Shown here: piece after piece, positions 29,351 to 47,954 of the stretch
Numbering within the stretch: the first letter of the stretch is position 1
Layout: each line of letters starts with the position of its first letter
Assembly (NCBI GenBank): GCA_903893545.1
Contig: CAITMJ010000033.1
Coordinates: 8,069 to 72,068 of the forward strand
DNA from: an uncultured Chlamydiae bacterium
GTDB lineage: Bacteria > Chlamydiota > Chlamydiia > Chlamydiales > SM23-39
Length of the DNA: 64,000 nucleotides
Reading direction: 5' to 3'
Notes under the pieces: model-generated
Database searches by the model: none
Told to the model about the DNA's origin: nothing
Seen by the model: the letters and a program-made list of their open reading frames with translations, nothing else
Program-made: the position numbers and the translations under genes

Positions 29351-29992
29351 ATGTCCAGTTACTTAAGTTTACTTGATTACTGCACCATAAACCCACAGGT
29401 CGAGTTACGCCTCGGACTAAATGATTGGGTTAGCAAAGCGACTCTTTCTGAACGGCCTAAACGACAGATCGCTTACGCAAAAATTAGAGAGTGCTTGGAT
29501 CTGAAAATAACAATGCTAGATCTATCGGGATTGGGGTTAACCTCACTGCCCAATGAGATCAGCGCTCTTTCCAAGCTTCAAAAGCTCAACGCATCCCATA
29601 ACAATCTCGAATCTTTTCCAGATTTGTCAGAGTGCAAAAAACTCGTCTCCATCGATGTCTCACACAATGAGTTGACGGGATTTCCAGATCTTACCCGATT
29701 CTACGATCTGGAACTGCTTGATCTCTCTTATAACAAAATAGAAAAGGTTCCAGACTGTCCGGATAGCTCTTCTCTAAAATGCTTAAACCTCGTTCACAAC
29801 CAAGTCGTTTATCTGTCTGAAAATTTTGCCCATCTCAGTTCAGAGTGTGAAATCTCGATCGATAACAACCCAATCTCCATTAAGACCCTGGAAAATTTCT
29901 TGCAGCTCATTAAAGAGCCGCGTGGCCCTAAAATTTTGTGCAGCGTCATCTTAATAAAAGAGATTTTCAGGCGCGAAATCCACGCTAGATAA
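29351..29992 (+). CDS. Leucine-rich-repeat protein of the bacterial IpaH/SspH/YopM type, no ligase domain
   Basis: 213 aa. Lead-in W..ERPKRQIAYAKIRECLDLKITMLDLSGLGLTSLP, followed by five to six 22-aa LRRs (LxxLxxSHNxLxxFPDL). Confidence 0.8.
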   Translation: MSSYLSLLDYCTINPQVELRLGLNDWVSKATLSERPKRQIAYAKIRECLDLKITMLDLSGLGLTSLPNEISALSKLQKLNASHNNLESFPDLSECKKLVSIDVSHNELTGFPDLTRFYDLELLDLSYNKIEKVPDCPDSSSLKCLNLVHNQVVYLSENFAHLSSECEISIDNNPISIKTLENFLQLIKEPRGPKILCSVILIKEIFRREIHAR

Positions 29993-30066
29993 CTCGACAA
30001 AATCTCGCAAAAAAGTTATACACAATGTGATTTAAGGTAAAACCCTTTAAATAGAGGAATTTCCGA

Positions 30067-30828
30067 ATGAAGTGGTCTCTTTTTTTTCTATCGATCTTCT
30101 CTTGTGTGACTGGTGAAATCCGAGAAATCCAAACGATTGCTGAGTTTAAAAATCATTTAGATCCCGATGCGCTGGTGCTCTTCGATATAGACAATACCAT
30201 TATGGAAACTACGCAAACTCTCGGTTCAGATCAGTGGTTTACCCATCGCCGAAACGATTACGAAACTCGCGGCTATCCAGCCGTGGAAGCGCTTGAAAAT
30301 GCGCTTGCTGAATGGATGTCGATTCAAAATTTGACAAAAGTCCAAATCGTAGAGAAAGAGACCGCCGATCTTATTCGGGGATTGCAAGAAGAGGGACAAA
30401 CGCTAATGGGCCTTACCACGCGCGGCATGGGGCTAGCCCTCCGAACGATTGAGCAGCTAAAAACGCTACACGTAGATCTCACTAAGACATCTCCTTTGAA
30501 AGAAGAACAGCTTCTTCAAGGCGGGGCAGTTTTATTTCGCCAAGGGATTTTATTCACTGCGGGAACTGATAAGGGCAAAGCGTTTCTCGCCTTATTCAAA
30601 GATAAACTCCCACAGAAAGTGCTATTTATTAACGATAAAGCCTCTCACCTCAAAGAGGTGGAAAGAGCGTGCGAGCAGGCAAAGATTCCATTCATCGGCC
30701 TCCGATACGGTTTTCTCGATGAGAAGGTCAAAAGATTTTCTCATGAAATCGCCGCTATTCAATGGGAACATTTCGGCAAGCTTCTCTCCGATGAAGAAAC
30801 GGCAACGATCCTGAACTTATCTAATTAA
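30067..30828 (+). CDS. Secreted HAD-like protein (DUF2608-like)
   Basis: 253 aa, signal peptide, and HAD motif I LVLFDIDNTIMET. Confidence 0.6.
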   Translation: MKWSLFFLSIFSCVTGEIREIQTIAEFKNHLDPDALVLFDIDNTIMETTQTLGSDQWFTHRRNDYETRGYPAVEALENALAEWMSIQNLTKVQIVEKETADLIRGLQEEGQTLMGLTTRGMGLALRTIEQLKTLHVDLTKTSPLKEEQLLQGGAVLFRQGILFTAGTDKGKAFLALFKDKLPQKVLFINDKASHLKEVERACEQAKIPFIGLRYGFLDEKVKRFSHEIAAIQWEHFGKLLSDEETATILNLSN

Positions 30829-33800
30829 AACTCTCCTCCGATTCCGAGGTAGAAGAATGCATCGAAAAACAAGCTGTTCCATTTAAAGTCAGCCATGGCT
30901 TCGATCTGTACGACTTCGCAGATGGTAGTGAGGAAGTCAAATTCCAAAAGCCAACTATTGCGTCCCATTCCAAGGGCCGTTGTGCTCGCTGTTGTTCCAG
31001 AGGCACTCAAGACCTCATAATCGACAATGCGGTTATGATCGAGATATTCTCTTTGCCAGCCGAAATCAACCTCGGCGTGGAACTGCACAAGGGATTTTTC
31101 CCCTGAAAAAACAACCCTCGTTCCTAGAAATGTACTCAATGATTGAGGATCTTGCGAAGCAAACTGGAGGTCGTACATGCCCGCTCCCGACTCTTCATAT
31201 CCGCTGATGTGATCATAGATGTACTGCAGATCGAGGATAGGAATTAAGGCCAACCCTTCGGGAATCGAAGAATATGTCTTATTGGAGAAGGTGTATTCCA
31301 GATCAAATAAAAGATCGATGATGCTCTCATGCGGGGTTCCAATGGCTACTTCGCTTCCGTTAAGGCCCGTATTGCGGTGTAAATCATCCCAAGCGTAGGC
31401 GTACCCTCCTAGAAAATCGATAGCGATGTCTGGAAGTGCTTTGGGCACGATTGTGCTATACACAGTGCCGTGTAGTTTATTTACAAAGAACGCGCCGCCA
31501 TTTTCATCGATGACGCCTGTTTTACAGCGATAATCGACAGCCCCGCCAATACCTACGTAGTAAGCGCGACTGTCGTTGTCTTCAAAGGCATAGTCGCTGC
31601 CAGCAAGCGCGCCAATGGAGGAATATTTACTGCCCGGCTGCCCTTGTTTTGGATTGATCTGGCCAAATGAAGCGATCGGCCCCCCGTAGATCGTCCACGG
31701 TCTAGGTTGCTTTGCCACGGCCACTTTTTGACTGAGCATCTCCTGCCGTTTTCTAAAGGGACTCATTTCCTCATTGGCTGCGACAAGAGAATTAGGAGCT
31801 GCCGTTGGAAGACGACCGCGAAGCTGCAAACATTTGCGCATAAGTTCTGTGTTGTGCTGCCCGACGGAAGTAAATGTGAGACTTGTCGTCGATGTGCTTG
31901 CATGGGAGGGAACAGAAGGGACTAGGACCAACTGCACGGCGTTTGCTGTGTACTGAATGGAGGGAATAATCGATCCTGGAAACCCTTGCAAAGAGATGGA
32001 AGAAAACTGCGAAACAATCGAGTTTGTCGCGTAGATTAAATCCAATGTCTCTCCACTGGCGAGCGTCAGGCCAGGCAGTGCTGTGACGGTGAGCGGGCCG
32101 GTAAGGGTTGCTGTTTCTGTAGTAATCCCCCCAAAACTCGAGGTCGAGGCGATGTTTACATTGTATTGGGGAGAATTGCTTTCTGTGAATACTGTGGTTG
32201 TGATCAATGCGGCATTGGTGAGCGTTCCTCCAGAAAGAGTAAAGGGCTCTGTCGTGATTAAATAGTTGTTGGTCAACTGACCGCCGCTCATCGCAATGTT
32301 GTTGGTTGAAAGATCTCCGTTATTGACAACTGTTCCTCCGCTCATCGTCACGGTATCGCTCAAAATCAGTTCATTGTTTGTCAGAGTCCCGCCGGTCACG
32401 GTGAACGCAGCAAAAGAAGAGAGCAAGCCGGTGTTTACAATGTTTGCCGTCCCTTGAATTGTGAGGTCTCCTGATGAGGTAATAATCCAACCGCTATTGT
32501 TGACGTTATTTCCTTCGATCACTGCAATGTCAGGTTCGAGAACGCCAGCGTTGTTAAAAGTGCCAAGTCCTCCCGTATCTGTGATCGTGAGCGTATCGAG
32601 AGTTCCCAGCGAAACAGCGGAACCGAATGTCAGGGTAGCTCCAGAGGCAATGCTTATAATCCCAGAAACCGAAGAGGACGACCCTACAATGGGGACATTG
32701 ATGGTATGGCTTCCTGCTTCCACCTGAATTGTCGGAGTGGTTCCCGCAATACTGCCATCCAAGGTGAATTCTCCTCCCCCGCCTGAAAACTGTGAAATTG
32801 TATAAGAGGTCGCTGCCGTATTAAAGACCAAATTAAGCAGCGTAGGAGACTCCTCCACGCTGCCATTGGTCAACTCAATCGCTACCTCAGCAGATGCGAC
32901 AGCAGCAAATGTGGCAGTATCTCCGGCTGGCGCACTAATTCCAGGGACGCACCCGCCAGACCAATTCGAAGAATTGTCCCAAACATCGCTCGCCGATGAA
33001 ATCCAAGTTCCCGAACAGTCAGCCGATACCAACTTCACGGTCGCAGGGCTTACCATCTTTGGACTATATTGGACTGTATATCCAGCAGGAGGAGAGCTAA
33101 ATGTCCCTGTGAGGGAAGTGCCCGACAACAAGGTCAGTGGACTTGAAATGCTCCCTGTCACATTGAGCGTTCCATTTAAAACAAGCGGACCACTTGAATC
33201 GATAAACCCTGGCGCAGAGATATTTAGCGTTAATGCACCACCTGCTGCTTGCGTGTAGCTAGCCACATTGATGGTATTGGCCGCAACCACTGTTCCGTTG
33301 TTGGTCAAGGCGCCTACTTCTGTGACCGCATACGTTTGGAACGTTAACTCTGCCCCCGAAGCAACTGTGACAGCCGATCCGTTTCCAAGTACGTTTGTAG
33401 AGGCCCCTGCTTGCAGAGTGCCTCCGGAAACGGTGGTGGGTCCAGTGTAGTTACTGTTGCCGCTTAAAGTGAGCGTGCCGGTTGTCAGAGTAAGGCCGCC
33501 GCTCCCTGTGATTGCACCGGAAAAGGAGAGGCTGTCGCCATTTGCGATCGTCAAGACTGCAGAACCAGAACCTAAGTTCACATTGCCCGCGCCAGTCAAA
33601 CTGCCAATCGTCGTGTTATAGGTATCTATCGCAAGAGTCGCTCCTGAGCTGACTGTGACAGCAGATCCGACGCCAAACGCGCCACTTGTCTGTGTAGAGC
33701 CTGAAAAAACAGAGACCACGCCCGCTTGCAGGGTTCCCACACTTACAGTCGTAGCGCCCGTGTATGTGTTGGCGCCATTTAAAATTTGCGCCCCAGAGCC

Positions 33801-36800
33801 ATTCTTTGTAACGCCACCAGTCCCTGAAATCACGCCCTGAAAACTTTGCCCAGTAGAGACGCCAATGGTCAATGTATTGGCTCCCAAGAGAATTTTGGAA
33901 GAAGTGCTGCTGCTCGTCAAGCTTCCGACAGTGTTGTTATACCCATTGAGAGAGAGGATCCCTGAGCCAGACAAAACGATCGGAGACCCTGTTCCAAAAG
34001 CAGTTGTCGCTACGCCCGCTTGCAACGTCCCGCCAGAGACAGTCGTAGTCCCTGTGTATCCATTGGCATGGCTAAAAGTTTGGACTCCACTGACTAAAGT
34101 GATCCCGCCGCCACTTCCCGAAATTTGGCCAGAAAGGGTATTGCCGCCTCCAGAACTGATCGTCAAGACTCCAGATCCTAAAGTCACAGCGCCAGCGCCA
34201 GATAAGCTGCCGACTGTGTTGTTAAATCCATTGAGAGCAAGTGTTGCGCCGCTGCTGACTGTTACAGCAGAACCTACGCCAAAAGCGCCTGTCGTAGAAG
34301 TGGAGATAATGCCCGCCTGCAACGTCCCTACGCTGACTGTCGTAGCTCCCGTATACGTATTGGCCGCAGCAAGGATACATGTGTTTGATCCTATTTTTGT
34401 CAGCGCCCCTGCTCCAGAAATAATCCCCGTAGAGCTCACAGCGTTTGTCTGCGTATCGATCGTCCCTGCGGCAGTGAGTACAAGAGCGGAGGAGAGAGTC
34501 ACCGCTTCTTCTGCTTGCCAAATTCCTGCGCCGCTTCCGCTAAATGTCACTTGAACCGGCTGAGAAGAAGTGTCGATTTGCAGTGTTCCACTTTGGATGG
34601 TCAGGTTTGCAATCTCGCTGCTCAATCCTTGCAGCTCTAAAGCGCCTCCATTCAAGATGATATTTCCCCCAGGGCTTAGGAAATTCCCCGATACCGTAAT
34701 TACTCCTGTTGGAGAGATAAATGAGTTCGTCAGGGTCAGCGTCGTAGAATTCAAATTTACATTCCCAGAAATCGTAAGGAAGTCCGCCCCAGTCCCAGAC
34801 ATGATGCTCAGCGTATCTGCGACTGTAATCGGCACTGCGATCGTATGAGGGCCGTAATACACTTGAATTTGCGGAGATAGAGCCGCCGTGCCGCCCATGG
34901 TGATCGATCCGGTTCCACTGATGGTATAGTCGGTCGCAGAGCCTATGCTCAATGCGCCCAAGGTCGCTACAGAATTTAAAGTTACTGTAATCGCCCCCTG
35001 CCCCATTTCATAGCCAAAGACCGCTGTATCATCCTCGGCCCCGCCAGTATTGCCGATGCCAGGAGCGCAGCTTGTGCTCCAATTGCCAGAGGTTTCCCAC
35101 GCGCCTGCGCCAGCCACATTCCAAGTCCCTTGGCAGGCGGTCGAGGTGCCAATGTTCCAAATGGCTTGCGTCGCATTGTATTCGATTGTCGTATTCCCAA
35201 GATTTGTGACTGTCGAGAACATCCCTGTTTCAGACGAGTACTGCAAAATCACCTGATTGGAACCGGGCTGAATGCGAGGGAGAATCAACGTCCCCCCTAA
35301 AGTGGCAATCCCTGAGCCATCGATCACGCCAGTGCCTGGGAATGTCGCGAGATTGGAGACATCCAACGTCCCTGTTTGCGTATAGGTCGTCCCAGTAACT
35401 TGCTGATAGGGGATCAAAGTCCCCGAGTTTGTAATCACTCCCAGCGCATTTGTCCCGCCATCTAAAATGAGGGTAGCTCCACTATCTACTGTTGCTGCTG
35501 ATAGACTGTTATCTCCCGACAGCGTCAAAGTGCCTGCAGCTAGAGTTAAACCTCCGCCAGCGCCAGTAATCCCCCCAGAAAAAGTATTTCCATTCCCATT
35601 GCTGATCGTCAAGACCCCTGAGCCCGTTGTTACGCTGCCAGCGCCCGACAACATCCCGATTGTATTGCTAAAGCCATCGAGATCCAATGTAGCGCCTGAA
35701 GAGACTGTGATCGCAGAACCAACCCCGAACGCTCCGCTTGTCTGTGTATTCCCTGAAAAAACAGAAACCACCCCTGCTTGCAGAGTGCCAGCGGTGACGA
35801 GTGTAGGTCCAGAATAGGTATTTGTCCCTGAAAGAGTCAGTATTGCTGTTCCCGATTTGGTGAATGTATAGGCCGAGCCGCCCGCAATGGAGTTATTGGC
35901 GACGATGTTATGCCCGTTCGTATCGATTGTTCCCGAAGAGAAGAAAACGACCTTTGGGAAAGAGGTAAACGCTCCAGAGGCCTCGAAAACACCCGTGCCT
36001 CCTGAAATCACTTCAAAGAGGAGCTGTTTGGCCACAATGGTTGCAGTCGCAGTCGTATCGGTTGGAAATGCAGCTTGGTTTGCAATCAGAGTCCCATTGA
36101 GAAGCGTCGTATTTCCGTTGTATGTATTGGTCCCAGACAGTGTCAAAGTGCCCGATCCTGTCTTGGTCAATCCACCGCCGCCGATAGGAGCAGCCATTCC
36201 CGTCGTCACTAGATAAATGATATTTCCAGGAATCGCTACGTTATAGGTTTGCGTGTCGATAATTCCAGTGGTCGCCATGACGATCCCCGAAGTGGGGTTT
36301 AGCGAAATCGAACTCCCCGCAGCCTGAAGCGTTCCGCAAAACTGCTGGAAAGTAATCGATGAAGGAGCGCCTACGCTCAAGTGCGTTACATTGAGAACTC
36401 CCCCTTCTATGACGAGATCCCCCACAAGTGTGGCGGAGTTATCTGCCGTCAGAGTTAAGGTCCCCTGACCAATTTTTGCAAATGTCGTGGTCGAATCTGG
36501 CACTGTGATCGTGCCGCCGACTGTCAAATTAAAGGTGTTGGTGCTTAAAGTTCCAGTAGCTCCAGACGCAACGCTAAAATTATTCACTGGAGTGTCGTCA
36601 TCGGCAAGAACCGTAACAATGCCTCCGGTCCCCGTAAATAGATACGTGGAAGAGTCCCCCAAATATTGCGTATTGAAATAGACCCCATTTGTGAGGGTTG
36701 TCGTTCCGGTATATGTGTTAGCGCCAAAAAATGTGGGTTGAGGCTCTGGTTGGCCAGTTTCTGTAGTGCCTTCGAGAACGACAGCTCCGTTCCCTGTAAT

Positions 36801-39110
36801 CACCCCATAGAAGGGATTCGTACTGAGTCCACTTGTGATCGTAAGAACCCCGGGGCTTGTCACCTCTACGGAGGAACTAGAAGCGCCTTCGACGAGCCCT
36901 GTTAACTGTTGGATAGAGAGCGAATAGCCATTTAAATTCAGGACGCCACTTGCGCCGAGATTCACCTCCGCAGTAGATCCTAACGCAGTGGATGAGCCCA
37001 ATTGCAAAGTTCCATCGACCACAGATGTGATTCCACTAAAACCTGTGTTCGTCCCAGACAATATCAAAGTCCCAGGTCCATCTTTTTGCAACGTTCCCGT
37101 AGTATCTCCACTCGATACAGCCCCGCTGACAGTCATCGTGATAAGATCATTGATATAGAACTGCCCCACTGTTGGCACGCCGGAGACGTTGATAGAAACT
37201 GGCCCTGAAAAGGAGGTGTTCGCCCCAATGTTCACTCCACTGGTGCCCCCTTCTCTAAAATTTAGAGCCGTTATGCCTCCCAAAGAATTGGTTACAAGTG
37301 TTCCGCTCCCCACATCTCCTAAGGTGAGCGATCCCGTAAAGGAGCTAAAAGGATCTGTACTTGTCGTCGTAAGCTCGCCATTGCTAATCGTGAGTGAGCC
37401 TGACCCAGAAATCGTGCCCCCGTACGAGGTTTGCGCAGGAGATGGACCATTTCCAAAAAGAATGGTCACCGCATTTGTTCCCAGCAATAAACTAGCAGAT
37501 GAACCAGTCCCAGAAAGATACGAAATCGTACTATCATTGAGCGCTGTCGTCGACATATCCACGATCCCAGCGTTGCTGATGATCAGTGGAGGATTCCCGC
37601 TGGTTGGAAATGAGGCGCTCGTGCTAAAGACAAGAGTCCCCCCAGAGACCTGCGTTCCTCCTGTATAGCCACTTGTGCCCTGTAGAGTCAGAGTCCCCGT
37701 CCCTGTCTTAATAAGAGCTCCTCCACCTTCGATCTTCCCCGTTGTCAATACATTGTTCCCGTTCGTATCGATCCCTCCGCTAGTGGAAAGTGTGATCGTT
37801 TGGGCGATCGTAAAGGCTCCAAGAGCCTTCAACTTCCCGCCAGGAGCTGTTTGAATGGTTAAAGCGCTCCCCGAAGGAAGTCCCTGCAAGGCGATCTTAT
37901 TCCCCCCTGCAATCGTCAAGACTCCATTGTAATTGCTGCTCGTGGTCACATTGGATAAAGACCACAGATTTGATCCAAAATATATGATTGCCGCAGAGCC
38001 ATTGAGAGTCCCTGAAAACGTTCCACCGGAATAGACGTTCAAGGTTGAATTCGTAAGGGACCCGAGATTGACTGTTCCCGCTCCCGTCAAAGTGTTTGCA
38101 CTAGATGTATAGGCAGAGCTTGGATAGGTCAGCGTCCCAGAAGCCCCAACGGAGATATTCGACTGGATGCCGAAAGAGTTTGGCGCGGATCCTTGCAAGG
38201 TTCCTGCATTGACCGTCGTATCGCCGATAAACGATGCAGTGGCGCTTACATAGCTATAACTATTGTCATTGCTTAAAATAAGAGTGCCAGTGCTTCCGGC
38301 TGCCAATACAAGCGTTCCTCCAGATCCCGTTCCACTCGTAGGGGCCGTTGCCAAATATTCGATCGACCCCGACCAATTCGCTCCATCTTGCGTGTTGATC
38401 AGCGTAAACGTATTGCTATTGGCCACGACGTTCGCAACAATGGAAGCTTGATCTATGTTCAGTGTTTGATTGGCATTGAGTGTGAGAACTCCAATGCTGC
38501 TTTGGATCGTACAAAGGCTCGTCGGACAGATCGCATTGGCCGTATTGATGCTTACGCCGGCAGAGCCAAGTGTTGTTGGGCCTGTGTAGCCGTTTGACCC
38601 AGATAATACAAGAGAGCCTCCTCCGAGTAAAAGCCCTCCATCCCCCGTGATGTCCCCGGAAAAAACATCCTTATTATTGCCATAGAGAGCGAGGTTCGTC
38701 CCGCTCGGGATACTAATTGCGCATCCAAAAGTGTTGGCCGAAATAGTGGGTCCGCCTCCGCAATTAATCCACCCTCCCCCTGTCTGCACAATGAACGGAA
38801 AATCGCTGAACGTATAGCTCATTGCAGAAGAAGGTGGGACAAGAGTGATCGAAGGAGAGGTGCTCGTATTGGGGTATCCCACGGAAAGGGAATAGGGATT
38901 GGCAACATTTTGAATCACCGTGAAATTCGACGGAGATGTGTACGTAAAAAGGAGCTCATCTCCACTAGACGGCGTCGAGTTAGACTGCCAACTCAACGGA
39001 TTATTCATGTCGCCGCTGGGACTTCCCACCCAAGTAAAGGGAGCATCGCCTTTCAAATTGGCGCTGAGAAAAATGGCAATTAGGAGAGTTAATCTTTTTC
39101 TATTCATCAT
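30825..39110 (-). CDS. Giant autotransporter / Pmp-like adhesin with many PATR (autotransporter-associated beta-strand) repeats
   Basis: The maximal ORF (2766 aa) starts at 39125. MMNRKRLTLLIAIFLSA starts at 39110. Dozens of G-GTLTLSG-NTYTG-TTV--GTLQ units. C-terminal ~280 aa has alternating barrel-like sequence ending GIGGEF. Confidence 0.9.
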   Translation of the reverse strand: MMNRKRLTLLIAIFLSANLKGDAPFTWVGSPSGDMNNPLSWQSNSTPSSGDELLFTYTSPSNFTVIQNVANPYSLSVGYPNTSTSPSITLVPPSSAMSYTFSDFPFIVQTGGGWINCGGGPTISANTFGCAISIPSGTNLALYGNNKDVFSGDITGDGGLLLGGGSLVLSGSNGYTGPTTLGSAGVSINTANAICPTSLCTIQSSIGVLTLNANQTLNIDQASIVANVVANSNTFTLINTQDGANWSGSIEYLATAPTSGTGSGGTLVLAAGSTGTLILSNDNSYSYVSATASFIGDTTVNAGTLQGSAPNSFGIQSNISVGASGTLTYPSSAYTSSANTLTGAGTVNLGSLTNSTLNVYSGGTFSGTLNGSAAIIYFGSNLWSLSNVTTSSNYNGVLTIAGGNKIALQGLPSGSALTIQTAPGGKLKALGAFTIAQTITLSTSGGIDTNGNNVLTTGKIEGGGALIKTGTGTLTLQGTSGYTGGTQVSGGTLVFSTSASFPTSGNPPLIISNAGIVDMSTTALNDSTISYLSGTGSSASLLLGTNAVTILFGNGPSPAQTSYGGTISGSGSLTISNGELTTTSTDPFSSFTGSLTLGDVGSGTLVTNSLGGITALNFREGGTSGVNIGANTSFSGPVSINVSGVPTVGQFYINDLITMTVSGAVSSGDTTGTLQKDGPGTLILSGTNTGFSGITSVVDGTLQLGSSTALGSTAEVNLGASGVLNLNGYSLSIQQLTGLVEGASSSSVEVTSPGVLTITSGLSTNPFYGVITGNGAVVLEGTTETGQPEPQPTFFGANTYTGTTTLTNGVYFNTQYLGDSSTYLFTGTGGIVTVLADDDTPVNNFSVASGATGTLSTNTFNLTVGGTITVPDSTTTFAKIGQGTLTLTADNSATLVGDLVIEGGVLNVTHLSVGAPSSITFQQFCGTLQAAGSSISLNPTSGIVMATTGIIDTQTYNVAIPGNIIYLVTTGMAAPIGGGGLTKTGSGTLTLSGTNTYNGNTTLLNGTLIANQAAFPTDTTATATIVAKQLLFEVISGGTGVFEASGAFTSFPKVVFFSSGTIDTNGHNIVANNSIAGGSAYTFTKSGTAILTLSGTNTYSGPTLVTAGTLQAGVVSVFSGNTQTSGAFGVGSAITVSSGATLDLDGFSNTIGMLSGAGSVTTGSGVLTISNGNGNTFSGGITGAGGGLTLAAGTLTLSGDNSLSAATVDSGATLILDGGTNALGVITNSGTLIPYQQVTGTTYTQTGTLDVSNLATFPGTGVIDGSGIATLGGTLILPRIQPGSNQVILQYSSETGMFSTVTNLGNTTIEYNATQAIWNIGTSTACQGTWNVAGAGAWETSGNWSTSCAPGIGNTGGAEDDTAVFGYEMGQGAITVTLNSVATLGALSIGSATDYTISGTGSITMGGTAALSPQIQVYYGPHTIAVPITVADTLSIMSGTGADFLTISGNVNLNSTTLTLTNSFISPTGVITVSGNFLSPGGNIILNGGALELQGLSSEIANLTIQSGTLQIDTSSQPVQVTFSGSGAGIWQAEEAVTLSSALVLTAAGTIDTQTNAVSSTGIISGAGALTKIGSNTCILAAANTYTGATTVSVGTLQAGIISTSTTGAFGVGSAVTVSSGATLALNGFNNTVGSLSGAGAVTLGSGVLTISSGGGNTLSGQISGSGGGITLVSGVQTFSHANGYTGTTTVSGGTLQAGVATTAFGTGSPIVLSGSGILSLNGYNNTVGSLTSSSTSSKILLGANTLTIGVSTGQSFQGVISGTGGVTKNGSGAQILNGANTYTGATTVSVGTLQAGVVSVFSGSTQTSGAFGVGSAVTVSSGATLAIDTYNTTIGSLTGAGNVNLGSGSAVLTIANGDSLSFSGAITGSGGLTLTTGTLTLSGNSNYTGPTTVSGGTLQAGASTNVLGNGSAVTVASGAELTFQTYAVTEVGALTNNGTVVAANTINVASYTQAAGGALTLNISAPGFIDSSGPLVLNGTLNVTGSISSPLTLLSGTSLTGTFSSPPAGYTVQYSPKMVSPATVKLVSADCSGTWISSASDVWDNSSNWSGGCVPGISAPAGDTATFAAVASAEVAIELTNGSVEESPTLLNLVFNTAATSYTISQFSGGGGEFTLDGSIAGTTPTIQVEAGSHTINVPIVGSSSSVSGIISIASGATLTFGSAVSLGTLDTLTITDTGGLGTFNNAGVLEPDIAVIEGNNVNNSGWIITSSGDLTIQGTANIVNTGLLSSFAAFTVTGGTLTNNELILSDTVTMSGGTVVNNGDLSTNNIAMSGGQLTNNYLITTEPFTLSGGTLTNAALITTTVFTESNSPQYNVNIASTSSFGGITTETATLTGPLTVTALPGLTLASGETLDLIYATNSIVSQFSSISLQGFPGSIIPSIQYTANAVQLVLVPSVPSHASTSTTSLTFTSVGQHNTELMRKCLQLRGRLPTAAPNSLVAANEEMSPFRKRQEMLSQKVAVAKQPRPWTIYGGPIASFGQINPKQGQPGSKYSSIGALAGSDYAFEDNDSRAYYVGIGGAVDYRCKTGVIDENGGAFFVNKLHGTVYSTIVPKALPDIAIDFLGGYAYAWDDLHRNTGLNGSEVAIGTPHESIIDLLFDLEYTFSNKTYSSIPEGLALIPILDLQYIYDHISGYEESGAGMYDLQFASQDPQSLSTFLGTRVVFSGEKSLVQFHAEVDFGWQREYLDHNRIVDYEVLSASGTTASTTALGMGRNSWLLEFDFLTTICEVVQIEAMADFKWNSLFFDAFFYLGIGGEF
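33400..35835 (-). repeat. Three diverged ~0.35-kb coding modules inside the autotransporter gene
   Basis: The module NTY(T/S)G.T.V..GTLQAG...GAFGVGSA(V/I)TVSSGATL...G(S/M)L(S/T)GAG.V..GSGVLTI recurs at about 35490-35835, 34015-34375 and 33400-33790. Confidence 0.75.
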
Positions 39111-39112
39111 TT

Positions 39113-41296
39113 CTATCCCGGCCATCCTGGTGGAGAGCTCGCTACGTTAATTCCGAAATTAGGAGTTGTCACTTCAAACCAAGGCTCTAAAGGCTTGGGA
39201 AATTGGGCTTCAATTGAGGTAATGGGGACAGAAAATGTAACCCCTTCTAACAACTGTTGCGTTTGTGTCGAGTAGGCGTTCGCAGCGCTCGATGGAGTCA
39301 CAATCTGTCTTTGTAAATTGATGTTAAATACATACGTTTGGCTATTGTATTGGAACTCGACCTGGAATGGGTGAGTTGCATCGACATAGACATTGAAGTA
39401 GTCTGTATTTCCTGAAGTGGGAGGCACAATCGTATTTTGCAAAATCTGCGTGCCATCAGATGACTTATAATAATACATGAATGAAACAGTCACTCCATTG
39501 GGTGCAGGAGTAAGACTCACAGAATAGGTATACGTATCGTTGTTTATGTCCATCTCTTGAACGGGTGTGAGCGATAAACTCTCCATCACAACGACGACAT
39601 ACGGGCTATTTTGGGTAGAATCGCTTGTGTCGGTATACGGGTTTCCATTGCCATCTTGCACTGGCATCGCCATCAGTCCCGCCATCCCGAGTAAGTCATC
39701 ATAATCATACGCGTAGCCGAGGCCGAGATTGACATTATTCAACACGGCATAAGGCAAAGAAGAACTCGCAACCCCTTGCCCATCCAAATTTTGGTGCAAG
39801 GCATCGACGTACAAATTGTTCCAAGGACCGCCTGTCCAAGTCGAAGGAATCCCGGGAATCGCCTGAAAATAACTATTCTTATTCGGACTGACAGGATCTA
39901 ACTCTCCAAATCCCCCAGGAGGAACCTCGGCAGGCGCATTGAACGAAGAGGCTGCCTTAGAAACAAAGGGAGAGGTAAATGGAGCAATCACTGGCATTTG
40001 CCCAATACTAAATAAGGCACTCACAGCTTTTGATAGCTCATTGGTATAGCCGACCGCAATGGCTGGGCTAAATGGCCAAACCGATCCGCTAAGAAGCTGC
40101 TCTGTAGTGACCTCAGTGTCTCCTGTTGTCGAAGTCGGCACCCCATCGTAAAATAACTGAAGCTGTGTTGTCGGAGGGACGGGAGCTGTTCCCGAGCCGG
40201 TAAATTGCAAAAGCCCAGTCGTCCCGGAAACCGACGTCAATGTATACGTATTTGATGTCGTGTTCTCTGGAGGGGTGATCGTAAATGTGAAACTATGGGA
40301 AAGATAATAATTATATAACGCCAACATATACGACTGGCCGGTTAAAGGCCCATTGCTTGTATTCGATGTATAATCGGAAGGGAAATATTGGGCCGGATTG
40401 GTTGTCGAACTTACATTTTTAAATTGTGTTGTACTCCCTAAAGCGATGCTATTTTTCGCAGCCAATACTCGAGTGCTTCCAATGCGATTGGTTCCAGATA
40501 CAATGTAAGGATTTGCATAAAAAGGGATCTCCAAGCCCAGCCAAGCATTCTTTAAAGGGGCTGCGCTAAAAACGGTATTCATATTGTTGATTACGTTTTC
40601 CCGTGTCAGATTTGTCAACGTACCGGAATAGGGTTGCCCTAGGTTTAAAGGATCTGTCCCTGTCCCTGTATAACTATACGCAGCCAGATGCATCGGAAGG
40701 CAAAAATAATCGACCCAAGACAAGTTGATGTACAAGGTCGTGGCGACTGTCGATGTCGTATTTGCAGCCGGGTCATAATTGACCAGGCCAAACTCAAAAT
40801 CTTGATAGAGCGTATAGTAATTTACATCGTTGAGCGCTGTGACAGAGCTATCTCCAATATCCAATACCATTCTCGAAGGAGCCGGATTAAAAATTGTCGG
40901 CAAATACATCGGCTGCCCGATAGAAATATATCCTCTTGCAGAGCTACAGACCGGCAAGTAGATCACAAAGGCATCGCCTGGCTGTGGGTTTATATTCTTC
41001 GCCGGAGGCAACTGATCGAAGGTGATACTCAGCGCTGCAGAACTCGGAGTTCCATCTACATTCGGATAGACATAACTACAAATCCCCGTCGTCAAATCGG
41101 GGACCAAATAGCAAGGAAGGCCGCAGGGATCTAGCGCATGGGCAATGAAATAGAGTTGATCATCTGCCTGCCCTGTATTGTTGACGAGCACCACGGGCAC
41201 ACAATTTGGAATCGGCGCAGGAGCGATTGCGGCTGGAGCTGCCATAGCGCCTCGCATCGCCCATAAAATATACACAATATAAAGCAATCTCTTCAT
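39113..41296 (-). CDS. Secreted 727-aa protein with GH64 (beta-1,3-glucanase / thaumatin-like superfamily) signatures
   Basis: Signal peptide MKRLLYIVYILWAMRGAMA. VVLVNNTGQADDQLYF, IYLPVCSSARGYISIG, DFEFGL...INLSWVDYF and LGYAYDYDDLLG parallel GH64 landmarks recalled from memory. The CDS itself is solid; the function call is tentative. Confidence 0.55.
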   Translation of the reverse strand: MKRLLYIVYILWAMRGAMAAPAAIAPAPIPNCVPVVLVNNTGQADDQLYFIAHALDPCGLPCYLVPDLTTGICSYVYPNVDGTPSSAALSITFDQLPPAKNINPQPGDAFVIYLPVCSSARGYISIGQPMYLPTIFNPAPSRMVLDIGDSSVTALNDVNYYTLYQDFEFGLVNYDPAANTTSTVATTLYINLSWVDYFCLPMHLAAYSYTGTGTDPLNLGQPYSGTLTNLTRENVINNMNTVFSAAPLKNAWLGLEIPFYANPYIVSGTNRIGSTRVLAAKNSIALGSTTQFKNVSSTTNPAQYFPSDYTSNTSNGPLTGQSYMLALYNYYLSHSFTFTITPPENTTSNTYTLTSVSGTTGLLQFTGSGTAPVPPTTQLQLFYDGVPTSTTGDTEVTTEQLLSGSVWPFSPAIAVGYTNELSKAVSALFSIGQMPVIAPFTSPFVSKAASSFNAPAEVPPGGFGELDPVSPNKNSYFQAIPGIPSTWTGGPWNNLYVDALHQNLDGQGVASSSLPYAVLNNVNLGLGYAYDYDDLLGMAGLMAMPVQDGNGNPYTDTSDSTQNSPYVVVVMESLSLTPVQEMDINNDTYTYSVSLTPAPNGVTVSFMYYYKSSDGTQILQNTIVPPTSGNTDYFNVYVDATHPFQVEFQYNSQTYVFNINLQRQIVTPSSAANAYSTQTQQLLEGVTFSVPITSIEAQFPKPLEPWFEVTTPNFGINVASSPPGWPG

Positions 41297-41310
41297 CTTT
41301 CTACCTTGCC

Positions 41311-42384
41311 CTAGAAATCCACTTGCATAGACGCATTTATCCCTTGTAAACCAAGATCTCCCTGAGAAGGCTGTCCCGCTCCAGGCGCTTGATCGATAAA
41401 GAAGTAGTTAAAGAGCTGATTTTGATCAAACCAACTCATCATTTCGTATCCTACAGAAACGGAAAGCCGTCTCTTTTGACTGTTGAAAAACATCGCCCAC
41501 TTCGCCCCTACAGCCAGTTCCATCGCATAAGCATTTTGAAAAAACGAGTCCTCTGCATCGAGTAACTCCAGATCGGCGGCGCCAGACATGACCCCTTTTT
41601 GCTCCGTGGCAAATCTTCCGAATAAAAGAGAGGCAGCTCCATTGGCATACAAGCTCCACTGCTTGTTCAGAAACCAGTTGGTTCTCACGCCGGGCTTTAG
41701 CCCCCAACCATCAAAATTATTCTGCATCGACATAGAGACGTTTTCGGCCCCGGCTCCTCCACCAGTTTGATTGAGAAAGGATCCATTGTTATAAGAGCTC
41801 TTTACCTGTTGATGAATAAACGCCCCTGTAAATGCCATGTAAGGATCGATAGAGACCCTACTTGTCGCAAACGATGATCTCGCTAGGCAAAGATCCAATG
41901 TATTGAAGTGGAGAGTCCAGCTTAAAGAGGCATCTTCTGCTACGAACGCTGCCATGCGGAAGCCAGCGGGGAACCAGGTCGCAATGAGAGTATCTGTCGC
42001 AAGAGATGAAATGGATGCAGAACTCTGCGAATGGCTTTGATAGTAGGTCCAAATCAAAGAAGCCTCCCAAGACTGCGCTTCGAACCGATACCCCGCCAAC
42101 AATCGAAATCCGGGATTCCACGAAAAATCGACATCGTGAGAAGTCCCATTGGGCAAAGGTCCCTGTCGATTGTAATGACCTATCGCTGCCGGGTAAATCT
42201 CAGGAAACGTCCATGCGTAAGAAAGACCATCTTGATCTGCCGCCATATACAAAAATTCAGCGCCGACAAATCCATATCCATAGTTTGCCGGGAACGTTGA
42301 CGGGACCTTTTCCCCTACAGCTGCAAAGATACCGACCCACGCAAGGAGACAAGCAAAGGAGAGAGAGTTTCGCAATCGGTTCAT
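41311..42384 (-). CDS. MOMP-like outer-membrane porin paralog 1
   Basis: 357 aa, signal peptide, AEFLYMAADQDGLSYAW, DFSWNPGFR, WTLHFNTLDLCLARS, terminal MQVDF. Confidence 0.75.
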   Translation of the reverse strand: MNRLRNSLSFACLLAWVGIFAAVGEKVPSTFPANYGYGFVGAEFLYMAADQDGLSYAWTFPEIYPAAIGHYNRQGPLPNGTSHDVDFSWNPGFRLLAGYRFEAQSWEASLIWTYYQSHSQSSASISSLATDTLIATWFPAGFRMAAFVAEDASLSWTLHFNTLDLCLARSSFATSRVSIDPYMAFTGAFIHQQVKSSYNNGSFLNQTGGGAGAENVSMSMQNNFDGWGLKPGVRTNWFLNKQWSLYANGAASLLFGRFATEQKGVMSGAADLELLDAEDSFFQNAYAMELAVGAKWAMFFNSQKRRLSVSVGYEMMSWFDQNQLFNYFFIDQAPGAGQPSQGDLGLQGINASMQVDF

Positions 42385-42395
42385 GATATCCTCGC

Positions 42396-43463
42396 TTAAA
42401 AATCCAATCGTATCGATAGAGAAAGGCCTTGCATTTCTAAATCTGAACGCCTTTCGTAGTTTTGCGCAAACGTCGTATTCACTTGAGAAAAGAGGTTTTG
42501 TTTAAACCAAATAATCCCTTCGTACTGAGCAGCGATCGCCACGCGCAAATTCGCTCGAGTCGGAGAAGTTTGCCACTGCAAGCCAAGCGCGCTTTGCAAT
42601 CCTATGCGCGTCCTTTGAGAAGATTTGCGCATTTTCAAGTCTCCATCTGCAAGCTCCGGCACGAGCCACTTCTGGTCGATCTCAAAAACGCCGTGGACAA
42701 TGTAACTTGCAATCGTCCCTAGCACGCTCCAAGAAGAGGATAAATTCCATTGAGGACTAGCTCGTAAAAACAGCCCTCCTGCAGAATACGAACTCTCTAA
42801 TTCCGGTCGCAGGGTTACTTCGGAAGGGATGATTGTATATTGCGTCGATGCGGCGGTTGCATTCTGTTCATTGACATCGAGGCCTTGATGAATCCACACG
42901 CCTGCGGCTCCAAAAGAAAGATCTGTCGAAAGATTTTTGCCGAGGAAATAAGAGCGAGAAAGCCCCCCATCGATCAAATTGTAGTGCAAATGCCACTTTG
43001 CAGACATCTGCGTCATATCTGCCGATTCGATAATCCCAACTCCATCATTCCACACACCGTTATTTAAGAGTCCATTGCCAGCTGCTACCTCAGTCTTTTG
43101 CGAAGCGCTCGTAAAAAACCGAGTCCAAAACGCTTTGAGTTCCCAATCATCGGGCAAATTTCTCACGCCCACTGAAATTCTCGATCCAGGGCTCCACTGA
43201 AAATCGACCTCGCGGACAGAAACGCCTTGCATGATTTGAACAGGCAAAAGAGTATTGCTTAAAAGGTCGTATTCCAATCCATCTTGCCTTGCAATCCAAA
43301 AGAGAAAGTCTCCGCGTACAATCGTGTAAATCCCCTTTACAGTGGCAGACGCTGTAGGCGTGCAAGTTCCTATGGTCCCGTTGATAAACAGTTGCCGACA
43401 TCCCGGCTCTTCTCCAAAGAGGGCGCTTCCAAATACACAGAGTAACATTCCTATTTTCTTCAT
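42396..43463 (-). CDS. MOMP-like outer-membrane porin paralog 2
   Basis: 355 aa, GDFLFWIARQDGLEYDL, DFQWSPGSR, WHLHYNLIDGGLSRS, terminal IRLDF. Confidence 0.75.
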   Translation of the reverse strand: MKKIGMLLCVFGSALFGEEPGCRQLFINGTIGTCTPTASATVKGIYTIVRGDFLFWIARQDGLEYDLLSNTLLPVQIMQGVSVREVDFQWSPGSRISVGVRNLPDDWELKAFWTRFFTSASQKTEVAAGNGLLNNGVWNDGVGIIESADMTQMSAKWHLHYNLIDGGLSRSYFLGKNLSTDLSFGAAGVWIHQGLDVNEQNATAASTQYTIIPSEVTLRPELESSYSAGGLFLRASPQWNLSSSWSVLGTIASYIVHGVFEIDQKWLVPELADGDLKMRKSSQRTRIGLQSALGLQWQTSPTRANLRVAIAAQYEGIIWFKQNLFSQVNTTFAQNYERRSDLEMQGLSLSIRLDF

Positions 43464-43472
43464 TCCATCACC

Positions 43473-44579
43473 CTAGTAGTCGAACCGCGTTGCAAAGGAA
43501 AATCCTTGGAAACCTAAATTGCCGTTGGCCGAATAAAAATATCTGCTGTTTGAAGAGTTTACAAATGTGAACCTGCGCAATTGATTGAGGTGGATCCATT
43601 CGGATAAGTCATACATCACTTGGAAGGCGAGTTTTGACTGTTTTTTCCATGCACATTCCCATTCCGCTCCCAATCCCGCCTCGTAAGCAAAACGAGTTCG
43701 ATAAGATCTCTGATCTAAGACATCGTGCACACTGTAAGACAAGCTCGAAGCGCGATCAAACACAGCAGACAGATCCTGCTGCTCTAATTTATATTTGCCA
43801 AAATTCAAAGACCCCTGAAACCTTCCCAAAATCTTCCATTGATTCGACACCAGCCAAGACATTCCAAAGGTAGAAAAAAGACCCACTGCCTGAAAGTTAT
43901 TTTTTCCCTTAAAATAAGTCGGATTATTCACAACAGTTCCTCCTGCATAATTTGCCTGAAACTGCTGATTGATCCATGCGCCCTGCACTCCCGAATGGAC
44001 GCTAAGCGCCAGTTGAGAACTCGAAAAATAGGTCCGCTTGCAAGCGAAATTTACGACGTTATAGTGAAGATTCCAAGTCGCAGATGATTGTAAAACCGGA
44101 TTGTATCCGGTCTGGTATCCGGCTCCTAACCAAATGGGGGCGATATTGGCATTGTCTAAAGAATCGATGCTCGAAGAATTATTCATCGTTCCTACGAGCT
44201 GTGTCCAGCGGGCATAGACATCCCAATTGTCAAAAGGAGTGTGGATTCCTCCCTCTACGCGAACACCTGGTTTCCAGGAACCTCCGACCTTGGTAAACTT
44301 GCCATTGTCAATGATCGGTATCGTAGTAGGGTCAGTTCCTGGAGTCGTGCTCCCAAGAGAATCTTGGCGATAGGAGTATTCCAGCCCATCTTCGTACGAG
44401 GACCAGTACAAAAATTCTGCCTGAAGAAAAACTCCCCATGCGCGGGCCCTTGGACTCGCTATTTTCCCTTGGGCACGAGAGAACACATTGTATTCTTGGA
44501 TCTGCGGCACTGGCGCTGGCGTTTCTTTTGCAAAACCAGCAAAAGTTATCCCCAGAAGAAGAAAATAGACCTTTTTCAT
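43473..44579 (-). CDS. MOMP-like outer-membrane porin paralog 3
   Basis: 368 aa, AEFLYWSSYEDGLEYSY, GGSWKPGVR, WNLHYNVVNFACKRT, terminal TRFDY. Confidence 0.75.
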   Translation of the reverse strand: MKKVYFLLLGITFAGFAKETPAPVPQIQEYNVFSRAQGKIASPRARAWGVFLQAEFLYWSSYEDGLEYSYRQDSLGSTTPGTDPTTIPIIDNGKFTKVGGSWKPGVRVEGGIHTPFDNWDVYARWTQLVGTMNNSSSIDSLDNANIAPIWLGAGYQTGYNPVLQSSATWNLHYNVVNFACKRTYFSSSQLALSVHSGVQGAWINQQFQANYAGGTVVNNPTYFKGKNNFQAVGLFSTFGMSWLVSNQWKILGRFQGSLNFGKYKLEQQDLSAVFDRASSLSYSVHDVLDQRSYRTRFAYEAGLGAEWECAWKKQSKLAFQVMYDLSEWIHLNQLRRFTFVNSSNSRYFYSANGNLGFQGFSFATRFDY

Positions 44580-44679
44580 GCCCTGCCCACAAGGTTAAAG
44601 AACCTTTGTACATAGAAAAAATTTTATTCTCAACCAAGAACCTATCCTAATAAAATTTTTTCGTCAGAAATTAAGCCAA

Positions 44680-45576
44680 TTAAAGATCCAAAATCGCAAA
44701 TTCCATATCGGATACATCGCGATTATTCGGCAGATCATCCTTTGTAGGATGGGATTGATCTGGAGAAATTTCGTATTTTTCGACGAGGCGCTTGTTGATA
44801 TAGCTAAGTTCCATCACCCGTGGAAGGCGACCTGTAGAATTACTAGTAACAAAATGGTCTAGGCAATAATTATTTCCATGAACATGAACCAAGAGAAAGT
44901 CTTTGTCCAATGTTCTCAATAGATTGAGCGCCTCGGCAATCTGGTTATCTGCAGGAAAATGAATTTCTAGAACAATTCCTGTAATATCACGAGTGTGTTG
45001 CAAAAGATCTGGCAGCGTATCGTATTCATTCCCTTCAATGTCCATTTTCACAAAAAGCTTCTTGCCTCTTATGCCCAACATTTCAACCTGCTCATCAAAA
45101 GAGGCGTTCCTTCCTTCACTCATCTGTTTATTACTTACAATGCATAAAGGGACAAAATGACATAACTCATGTGTAGTCTCTACGGGAGGGCAAGTGCCAT
45201 CGAATCCCCAAGAGGGTTTCTCATAAATGGCTGCTACCGATTCTTCAAATGAAATATCATCTGAAATCCCATATCCCATTACGGCGTCAGCCTTCTGTAT
45301 TGCAATTTCAGGCACTACATAGCCGCCATCACGATCTCTCCCAATACGCCGAAGTTGAATAGGACCTTCTGCATCATAGGCTCGATACACGCGAAGAAGC
45401 CTTACGATATCATGAGTGTCGGGTGTTTCGGAAAGGAGGGAATGAAGGAGATGGGTCTTGAGGAAGACAATCGCTGGACTAACGACTCTTTTTAGCTCCT
45501 TATCGGATACAATAAAACCATATGCGCTTCCTATAACCAGAAGCGCTATTGCGTATTGAGCCCACTTCAATTTCAT
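44680..45576 (-). CDS. FkbM-family methyltransferase with N-terminal membrane anchor
   Basis: 298 aa. KLFVKMDIEGNEYDTLPDLL...IVLEIHF matches the FkbM pattern (KiDvEGaE...E.H). Confidence 0.7.
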   Translation of the reverse strand: MKLKWAQYAIALLVIGSAYGFIVSDKELKRVVSPAIVFLKTHLLHSLLSETPDTHDIVRLLRVYRAYDAEGPIQLRRIGRDRDGGYVVPEIAIQKADAVMGYGISDDISFEESVAAIYEKPSWGFDGTCPPVETTHELCHFVPLCIVSNKQMSEGRNASFDEQVEMLGIRGKKLFVKMDIEGNEYDTLPDLLQHTRDITGIVLEIHFPADNQIAEALNLLRTLDKDFLLVHVHGNNYCLDHFVTSNSTGRLPRVMELSYINKRLVEKYEISPDQSHPTKDDLPNNRDVSDMEFAILDL

Positions 45577-45741: not shown

Positions 45742-46575
45742 ATGAGATGTAGATTATTCATTCTTTACCTGCTTGCCGCGGCTATTCCCCATGCAAACTC
45801 GAAAGTGTATGATTGCTTCTTGTTTCTCAACGAAGTGGAAGTCTTGGATATCCGCCTGCATGAGATGGCTCCTGTCGTCGATAAATTTGTGATTGTAGAG
45901 GCTATCGAAACTTTCCGCGGCAATCCCAAGGAGCTCGTCTTTGCGAAATTTGCGGACAGTTTCAAAGAATTCGCCGATAAGATCATTTATATTCCGATCG
46001 ATCATCACTTTGAATCGGAATGTGCTTGGAGGCGGGAGAAGTATCATAGAAACATGATTATAAAGGGATTGGAGGAATGCGAAGAAAATGATGTCATTCT
46101 GATCTCCGATGTCGATGAAATCGTTTCGGCAAAGAGCGTTAAGGAAATCGTCGTCGCTTTGCGCGGAAAGCAAAACTTGGTCGTTGCAGTCAACCAAAAA
46201 TTACACTCTTTCTTTCTCAACAGAGTCCCGGATGGCGCCTTATGGAGAGGAACGGTCGCGACCTCTTTTAATAAGTTGAAAAGACTTACTTGCGATGGAA
46301 CGAGATTACTTCGATACGACGTGCCGGGGGTTGGCAATGGCTGGCATTTCACGAATCAAGGGGGTTTGGAAAGGTATCTGTATAAACTCGGAGCTTACTC
46401 CCATTCTGAATGGGATACACCCGAATACAAAGAAGCCAAAAGAGAAGAAAGCCCAGTTTGGAGAACCTCTTCTGTACCCGTCGATGAATCATTCCCTCTT
46501 TACATTCGAGAAAACCAATCGTACTTCGAGGAAATCGGTTTTCTCTTGAGGTGTCCGTCGATCGATCAGCAATAA
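45742..46575 (+). CDS. Glycosyltransferase family 17-like (GnT-III type)
   Basis: 277 aa. KVYDCFLFLNEVEVLDIRLHEMAPVVDKFVIVEAIETFRGNPKEL matches the GT17 N-terminal signature. DVDE acidic motif present. Confidence 0.8.
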   Translation: MRCRLFILYLLAAAIPHANSKVYDCFLFLNEVEVLDIRLHEMAPVVDKFVIVEAIETFRGNPKELVFAKFADSFKEFADKIIYIPIDHHFESECAWRREKYHRNMIIKGLEECEENDVILISDVDEIVSAKSVKEIVVALRGKQNLVVAVNQKLHSFFLNRVPDGALWRGTVATSFNKLKRLTCDGTRLLRYDVPGVGNGWHFTNQGGLERYLYKLGAYSHSEWDTPEYKEAKREESPVWRTSSVPVDESFPLYIRENQSYFEEIGFLLRCPSIDQQ

Positions 46576-47829: not shown

Positions 47830-47832
47830 TGT

Positions 47833-47915: not shown

Positions 47916-47954
47916 ATAGGATGTGAAGCCGCTTATTTTAAGCGATGGAGGATT

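Follow-up and report, generated by a model that had tools for sequence, protein, structure and literature searches.

A conserved envelope gene cluster of uncultured chlamydiae links three MOMP-family barrels, a GH64-like protein and a giant autotransporter

For environmental chlamydiae, which are uncultured, host ranges and the biology of the surface have mostly been guessed from genomes. All the components of the locus that we describe here belong to known families, and tandem MOMP-like genes are already known in Simkania and Waddlia (PMC3561449, PMC12591485). In Legionella, the MOMP-family protein Lpg2961 is a trimer of 10-stranded barrels that builds architectural arrays around the type IV secretion system (T4SS; PMC12501162). 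The native MOMP structure of Chlamydia muridarum, from 2026, is also a trimer of 10-stranded barrels and superposes on the Legionella structure 9NH1 at about 6 Å, and its authors hold that MOMP cannot be a porin (PMC13254160). Among GH64 enzymes, the catalytic residues of LPHase are Glu154 and Asp170 (PMC4758615). The window analysed here is a stretch of 64,000 nucleotides (nt) from an uncultured Chlamydiae bacterium (assembly GCA_903893545.1, contig CAITMJ010000033.1, positions 8,069 to 72,068), and it contains five consecutive genes for three MOMP-family barrels (A, B and C), a GH64-like protein of 727 amino acids (aa) and an autotransporter of 2766 aa. The literature that we searched holds no paper on this arrangement, nor on GH64 or glucanases in chlamydiae with these partners, in line with the initial annotation of the locus, which knew of no description of the arrangement.

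Our preferred explanation, to which we give a probability of roughly 0.6, is that the five genes form a conserved, very probably co-transcribed envelope cluster, and that the GH64-like enzyme works with a barrel partner on the cell surface or close to it. The main new information comes from comparative genomics, in the form of the recurring five-gene order and of a recurring gene pair within it. The whole order was found in three other divergent lineages (L030-L033, L034 and L035/L036), with gaps that are equally tight and with flanks that differ among relatives and include an MFS transporter, a short-chain dehydrogenase and an amino-acid permease. The barrels have strict 1:1:1 orthologs in a fixed A-B-C order in L030, L034 and L035/L036, with identities of 55–58% for A, 51–59% for B and 50–65% for C, versus only 22–28% between the paralogs. 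This strict orthology, set against the low identity of the paralogs, indicates that the triplication is old and that its order has been maintained; the earlier description of the barrels as old paralogs thus holds, each having its own ortholog at 50–65% in the three other lineages.

The GH64-like gene is directly followed by the autotransporter gene, with no barrel genes nearby, in about 18 further loci from GTDB metagenome-assembled genomes (MAGs) and metagenomes (L004, L005, L006, L008, L009, L010, L011, L013, L014, L016, L018, L037, L039, L040, L041, L043, L044 and L045), including complete Neptunochlamydia and Simkania sp. chromosomes. In L042 the order of the two genes is reversed. Searches with tblastn and an iterated hidden Markov model (HMM) found no gene of PF05150, the Pfam family of the three barrels, within 10 kb of the pair-only loci. 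In a rough neighbour-joining tree, the trio-bearing loci are scattered within the autotransporter-linked clade. As judged from these sequence comparisons, the evolutionary core is the pair of GH64-like and autotransporter genes, with the barrel trio attached in some lineages only. Scanning metagenomes with a GH64-like profile yielded 16 loci, and a metagenome scan with barrel C orthologs gave no matches. The genome matches were all MAGs and included no named cultured chlamydiae, in a scan that required one of two short peptide motifs and so does not imply absence from cultured species.

GH64-like genes and outer-membrane barrel genes show a recurrent, partly convergent linkage in chlamydiae. 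In 14 loci (L017, L019, L020, L022-L027, L029, L047-L049 and L052; for instance L017:11873-12676), a sister clade of GH64-like genes adjoins a conserved protein of ~265–290 aa with a signal peptide, a C-terminal aromatic residue (Phe) and a weak OMP_b-brl match, which is presumably a small outer-membrane barrel. We also considered this small protein as a detached autotransporter beta-domain, and rejected the idea (hhalign probability 2.6%, no PDB sequence match). In L046 (2761-8159), a GH64-like gene is directly preceded by three PF05150 genes in tandem, on a contig that ends before any further gene. The three share 39–49% identity with one another and 21–26% with A, B and C, and their nearest relative is the single barrel upstream of the L029 GH64-like gene; the triplication in L046 is independent of that in the window and occupies the same position. 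Single PF05150 genes are also found less than 1.5 kb from the GH64-like gene in L017, L022 and L029.

When recomputed, the five minus-strand open reading frames (ORFs) of the initial annotation and the gaps between them were confirmed (Table 1). From barrel A to the GH64-like gene the gaps are 9, 11 and 14 nt, and the GH64-like stop either overlaps the autotransporter start by 13 nt (ATG at 39125) or precedes it by 2 nt (ATG at 39110). The second start, at M6, is more likely, because a typical signal peptide follows it (MMNRKRLTLLIAIFLSANLKG) and because the ENA gene call in L002 begins there. A Shine-Dalgarno-like purine run occupies the short gap at all four junctions (GGTGATGGA, GCGAGGA, AAGGTAGAAAG and GGGATAGAA). 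The identical DNA arrangement was recovered in the independent assemblies L001 (Logan) and L002 (ENA), and it is therefore not an assembly artefact. Three marks of an operon, namely a common strand, short gaps and an order kept in divergent genomes, are all found here; the tight packing and conserved order fit the single transcription unit proposed earlier, which is probably correct, and point to one transcript with translational coupling. It is very unlikely, in our view, that the genes are adjacent without sharing a function, packed together in a compact genome, served by several internal promoters and acting independently. Such a reading could draw on promoter-like hexamer pairs inside upstream coding regions (e.g. 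44207-44178 and 42197-42169), and on the separate occurrence of trio and pair in many relatives. However, order and tiny gaps are kept at 50–65% protein identity with differing flanks, the pair is kept in about 18 further loci, L046 shows a second, independent recruitment, and promoter-like sites are no commoner than in shuffled sequence.

In the AT-rich gap upstream of barrel A, a candidate promoter was recognized by eye, with TTGAGA (44633-44628), a 17-nt spacer and TACAAA (44610-44605); our promoter scan had skipped it because the −10 hexamer lacks a T at position 6. The relatives show no consistent common sigma-70-like or sigma-54-like motif upstream of the cluster, which probably has its own promoter, to reason from the fact that the gene upstream differs in every relative. 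The FkbM-like gene that precedes barrel A on the same strand does not adjoin the cluster in relatives. Downstream, the cluster is closed by a convergent DUF2608 gene, the two stops overlapping by 4 nt.

Table 1. Position of the cluster, its parts and neighbouring features in the 64,000-nt window
Feature	Position	Strand	Description
Barrel A	43473-44579	minus	368 aa; outer-membrane barrel of the Legionella MOMP family (PF05150) with signal peptide and C-terminal Tyr
Barrel B	42396-43463	minus	355 aa (350 aa from alternative ATG 43448); PF05150 family; C-terminal Phe
Barrel C	41311-42384	minus	357 aa; PF05150-family barrel; C-terminal Phe; modelled with 10 long strands
GH64-like gene	39113-41296	minus	727 aa
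Candidate acid/base Glu168	40793-40795	minus	GH64-like protein
Candidate acid/base Asp196	40709-40711	minus	GH64-like protein
C-terminal domain	39116-39679	minus	GH64-like protein, ~residues 540-727; beta-rich
C-terminal tail	39113-39130	minus	GH64-like protein; PPGWPG
Autotransporter gene	30825-39125 (full ORF); 30825-39110 (from M6)	minus	2766 aa; 2761 aa from M6
PF03797 beta-barrel translocator domain	30933-31682	minus	Autotransporter; E=9.3e-24, 85 bits against a 26-bit cut-off; end ...GIGGEF
Upstream gap	44580-44679	minus	100 nt, AT-rich; candidate promoter region of the cluster
FkbM-like methyltransferase gene	44680-45576	minus	Sixth same-strand gene, 100 nt upstream of barrel A; E=1.8e-4, below the Pfam cut-off
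Leucine-rich-repeat and DUF2608 genes	29351-30828	plus	213 aa and 253 aa; DUF2608 gene at 30067-30828, E=1.2e-57
Two-partner-secretion-like pair	13295-16062	minus	545 aa and 377 aa, overlapping
Glycosyltransferase family 17 gene	45742-46575	plus	E=3.8e-29
Bro-N domain gene	46986-47447	minus	
tRNA-Leu	47831-47916		
Peptidase M15-like gene	48024-48869		
Histidine kinase and sigma-54-dependent response regulator genes	48745-51275	plus	About 4 kb from the cluster
Snf2-family helicase gene	61920-63968	minus	682 aa

The 727-aa protein carries a Sec signal peptide, a GH64 catalytic region at ~residues 28–540 and a further C-terminal domain. The evidence that it is a divergent GH64 homolog, as the initial annotation had proposed, is indirect but consistent, and combines homologs, profiles, fold and catalytic residues. 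All 17 aligned homologs (31–51% identical) match the Pfam GH64 model PF16483, the best with E=1.9e-24, and a profile of the alignment retrieves the PDB entries 9vp9 (E=1.1e-6) and 5h4e (E=4.1e-6), placing E168 and D196 on the E and V-D of the catalytic strands in solved GH64 enzymes. An AlphaFold2 model of moderate quality (predicted local distance difference test, pLDDT, 67; predicted template modelling score, pTM, 0.71), with inserted stretches of low confidence, found only GH64 structures as significant matches in Foldseek, and these make up its top six PDB matches (5h4e E=7.3e-11; 3gd0 E=1.1e-9; target template modelling score, TM, 0.61–0.69, with 0.69 for 3gd0). E168, D196 and the motif Y[AG]YD[YF]DD are invariant in 38 of 38 chlamydial relatives that are otherwise 25–50% identical. 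The protein itself gave no direct match to any Pfam or NCBIfam model, and its C-terminal domain, confidently modelled and beta-rich, had no significant structural match in Foldseek. We found 47 homologs, and nearly all of them belong to MAGs that bear the labels Chlamydiae, Parachlamydiales, Simkania or Neptunochlamydia; the family is small, with 44 representatives at E ≤ 1e-3 among 1.84 billion, almost entirely chlamydial by record titles. The chlamydial origin assumed for the window is borne out by this distribution and by a match in the window to the CT441-type Tsp (tail-specific protease) model, at 730.5 bits against a curated cut-off of 700 bits. Finally, the 24 full-length members that are linked to an autotransporter, or are clade relatives of such members, have PPPWPG or a W-x-G variant close to it at the C-terminus, as does the protein in the window (PPGWPG), and the members linked to small barrels have LPNTNPFP-like ends. 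The PPPWPG tail is not just a ribosome-binding site, because it is retained even where 28–99 nt separate the gene from the next one.

The three barrels match PF05150 well above its cut-off of 25.4 bits: A with E=3e-21 and 76.1 bits (HMM 8-278 of 281), B with E=1.1e-13 and 51.2 bits (HMM 38-279) and C with E=2.3e-31 and 109.3 bits (HMM 11-279). At E ≤ 0.1, PF05150 was the only family reported; neither the Chlamydia MOMP model (Pfam Chlam_OMP) nor any NCBIfam model matched A, B or C. The 350-aa form of barrel B is the version on the NCBI contig. P0079, a relative with 30–34% identity, bears the NCBI name 'Lpg1974 family pore-forming outer membrane protein'. All the short motifs listed in the initial annotation are present in the three barrels, in the forms AEFLYW..EDGLEY, GDFLFW..QDGLEY and AEFLYM..QDGLSY; WKPGVR, WSPGSR and WNPGFR; and WNLHYN, WHLHYN and WTLHFN, together with the terminal aromatic residue (Y, F and F). 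Among themselves, A, B and C of the window share 22–26% identity. The barrels are poor in cysteine, with totals of 2, 3 and 2 residues in A, B and C, and 2, 2 and 1 outside the signal peptide. The AlphaFold2 model of barrel C, made from a 25-sequence alignment (pLDDT 82.4, pTM 0.80), has 10 long strands, not the 14–18 that had been expected. Its best Foldseek match is 9nh1, Legionella MOMP Lpg2961 (E=1.7e-13, TM 0.83, ~16% identity), followed by the 10-stranded OmpT, Pla and OpcA, and by homology to this model A and B are predicted to have 10 strands as well. The structure 9NH1 was also considered as a heterotrimer and rejected as such, since its chains A, B and C share one sequence and form a homotrimer; it lends no support to a heterotrimer here. 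PF05150 is also the family of the Simkania 'MOMP-like' proteins. Of the earlier label 'MOMP-like porins', the first half is a fair one; the second is a family label and not an established function.

The barrels probably act in the main as trimeric building blocks of the outer membrane. Under a glycan-foraging alternative, GH64 would cut host storage or wall beta-1,3-glucan to laminari-oligosaccharides, the barrels would be channels for the diffusion of these across the outer membrane, and the autotransporter would tether the cell to the substrate. The conserved catalytic pair, the pore-forming name given by NCBI to relatives of the barrels and the MOMP-family genes that adjoin GH64-like genes in several independent lineages would all suit such a module. 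We nevertheless consider it unlikely, because the predicted barrel is narrow, with 10 strands, because a chlamydial MOMP of the same architecture is stated to be unable to act as a porin (PMC13254160), and because barrel genes are lacking in the vicinity of most GH64-like/autotransporter pairs. Nor does the cluster, in the window or in relatives, adjoin a sugar transporter, a kinase or a downstream glycosidase: we found no sugar-catabolism genes in the cluster flanks or among the immediate neighbours of the pair in five relatives, where the neighbours are unrelated housekeeping or envelope genes, and no families of the SusC/SusD type (TonB-dependent transporter, SusD-like) in the cluster, its flanks or the same pair neighbours.

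The identification of the 2766-aa protein as an autotransporter proved sound, as it shows a signal peptide, passenger repeats and a beta-domain. The signal peptide after M6 is read straight from the translation, and it is followed by a passenger of ~2400 aa with 11 stretches of Pfam PATR (E=2.3e-40), 9 stretches of TIGR02601 (E=6.5e-41) and two internal module starts of the form W..W..NW at residues 1335 and 2041. A Pfam scan of the whole protein gave PATR only and missed the barrel, which was found by scanning the last 391 aa alone; the PF03797 domain is conserved in six orthologs, and a profile of seven orthologous C-termini weakly matched EstA (3kvn, E=0.005). Searches found no PDB sequence relatives of the protein and no DNA tandem repeats in its gene. 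By its domain content, we classify it as a classical type Va autotransporter, and we presume that its passenger forms a beta-helical fibre or adhesin on the surface. It contains no Pmp Pfam domains, and only 4 GGA[ILV] and 7 FxxN motifs in 2766 aa. As a separate observation, two independent JGI assemblies (L035:5448-11482 and L036:5441-11475) show the autotransporter divided in the same way, into ORFs of 868, 871 and 339 aa, the third being the PF03797 barrel alone; either a pseudogene or a gene that is truly split may account for this.

According to our preferred explanation of a co-transcribed envelope cluster, all five proteins would reach the envelope together because they are translated from a single mRNA, with coupling across the gaps of 2–14 nt. 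MOMP-family trimers would then provide an outer-membrane scaffold, the autotransporter would insert and display its passenger, and the GH64-like enzyme would be located at or near the cell surface, partnered with the neighbouring barrel protein; its substrate, as the bacterium attaches to the host, enters or leaves it, might be a beta-1,3-glucan of host origin or some related glycan. Where the enzyme is located, what it acts on and whether it physically partners a barrel protein are matters that we infer from the locus. A more speculative extension, which we hold to be improbable, is that the GH64-like protein serves the adjoining barrel as a dedicated partner or cargo, docked by its C-terminal domain and tail in a two-gene export or display system 'in trans', that a heterotrimer of A, B and C scaffolds this machine as Lpg2961 trimers surround the Legionella T4SS, and that the substrate points to hosts bearing beta-1,3-glucan, such as fungi, oomycetes and algae.

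Several observations weigh against the envelope cluster as we propose it. In most relatives, including L003, the closest GTDB relative, the 10 kb that precede the pair contain no trio, so that the link between trio and pair is evolutionarily labile; of the five-gene module advanced initially, the synteny check upheld the order in three lineages and a widespread pair, while the trio is often absent. In L012 and L021, GH64-like genes lack a barrel neighbour. Consensus scans of the five-gene block counted 20 promoter-like sites (20.7±3.8 in shuffles) and 20 terminator-like sites (16.3±4.4 in shuffles), figures by which one transcript and several are indistinguishable. The structural evidence for 10 strands comes from a single model, that of barrel C. 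No outer-membrane export route was identified for the GH64-like enzyme, and no beta-glucan source is known for the host. In addition, the GH64-like protein of the window does not match PF16483 even at E ≤ 10, and Thr156, a subsite residue of LPHase, aligns with its Gly170; both facts make the substrate, and even the activity, uncertain. They would also suit a GH64 fold without enzymatic function, a structural or lectin-like component of the envelope or surface such as a glycan-binding partner of the autotransporter or of a MOMP-family lattice, as would the enlarged catalytic region, which exceeds that of solved GH64 enzymes by about 180 aa, with inserts modelled at low confidence, and the fact that the gene is found beside membrane-barrel genes, with the two exceptions just mentioned, and never beside carbohydrate-metabolism genes. 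There is little likelihood of this, in our judgement, because the invariance of Glu168, Asp196 and Y[AG]YD[YF]DD in 38 sequences is the pattern expected of an active enzyme.

Other genes of the window were also inspected (Table 1). The minus-strand pair resembling two-partner secretion (TPS) consists of a 545-aa protein with a weak BamA/POTRA-type match and an overlapping 377-aa protein whose TPS domain is of the filamentous-haemagglutinin N-terminal type (E=1.4e-17). In L006, the GH64-like/autotransporter pair is immediately preceded by a gene of the ShlB type. The genes for the leucine-rich-repeat and DUF2608 proteins are convergent to the autotransporter gene. On the other side, the glycosyltransferase family 17 gene, of a mainly eukaryotic family, is divergent from the FkbM-like gene and is unlinked to the cluster in relatives. 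Bro-N proteins typically come from phages and large DNA viruses, and the stretch that contains the Bro-N gene, with tRNA-Leu and a peptidase M15-like gene near it, may be a mobile-element remnant. The histidine kinase and its sigma-54-dependent response regulator resemble the chlamydial CtcB/CtcC type, and no convincing sigma-54 promoter was found upstream of the cluster. The Snf2-family helicase best matched a 'pilus expression-regulating Snf2 helicase' model, with weaker matches to ZorD and DrmD, all far below the curated cut-offs.

A conserved secreted beta-1,3-glucanase homolog with intact catalytic residues, encoded beside barrel genes, offers a testable clue to the surfaces that these bacteria attack or bind, and hints at hosts or structures containing beta-1,3-glucan. 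Likewise, the fixed A-B-C trio constitutes a natural test of MOMP-family assembly, as hetero- or homotrimers, at a time when structures from 2025–2026 reveal trimers of 10-stranded barrels and challenge the porin role that has long been accepted. The pairing itself argues against annotating its members as isolated 'hypothetical' or 'beta-1,3-glucanase family' genes.

GH64 enzymes are, to our knowledge, produced by bacteria that live freely and lyse fungi and not by obligate intracellular ones. The protein in the window resembles the GH64 beta-1,3-glucanases (Streptomyces matensis LPHase, 3GD0/3GD9; 5H4E; 5H9X; 9VP9) in fold, catalytic-strand profile, Glu/Asp pair and Y-x-Y-D-x-D-D motif, and, by its predicted signal peptide, in being secreted. 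Unlike these enzymes, it has a catalytic region of ~510 aa instead of ~360 aa, and an extra ~190-aa C-terminal domain in the place of a known carbohydrate-binding or ricin module (PMC8394091). With PATR-repeat type Va adhesins (e.g. of the ShdA type), the autotransporter shares its signal peptide, PATR/TIGR02601 repeats and C-terminal PF03797 domain, but it is unusually large among known type Va autotransporters and consistently has a GH64-like gene just before it. It is also, like the Pmps, a chlamydial autotransporter encoded among genes for outer-membrane proteins, although it differs from them in its lack of Pmp Pfam domains and its few GGA[ILV] and FxxN motifs. The barrels share with Lpg2961 (9NH1) the PF05150 match, the signal peptide and the C-terminal aromatic residue, and the model of barrel C also shares its 10 long strands (TM 0.83), but they are about 70–100 residues longer and ~16% identical; moreover, they are three fixed tandem paralogs beside a glycosidase and an autotransporter, whereas the Legionella trimer decorates a T4SS (PMC12501162). 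Chlamydial MOMP, too, is trimeric, with 10-stranded barrels, and can be superposed on 9NH1 (PMC13254160), the trimers here being a prediction, but in Chlamydiaceae it has conserved cysteines and a cysteine-rich periplasmic region (PMC13254160), in contrast to the 1–2 cysteines of each mature barrel in the window. Also among the closest known systems are the tandem Simkania genes SNE_A02780, SNE_A02800 and SNE_A02810, relatives of Legionella MOMP (PMC12591485), and the large MOMP-like expansions of Simkania (35 genes) and Waddlia (11 genes; PMC3561449), from which our cluster is set apart by its linkage to a GH64-like gene and an autotransporter gene, a linkage not reported for them in the papers that we found.

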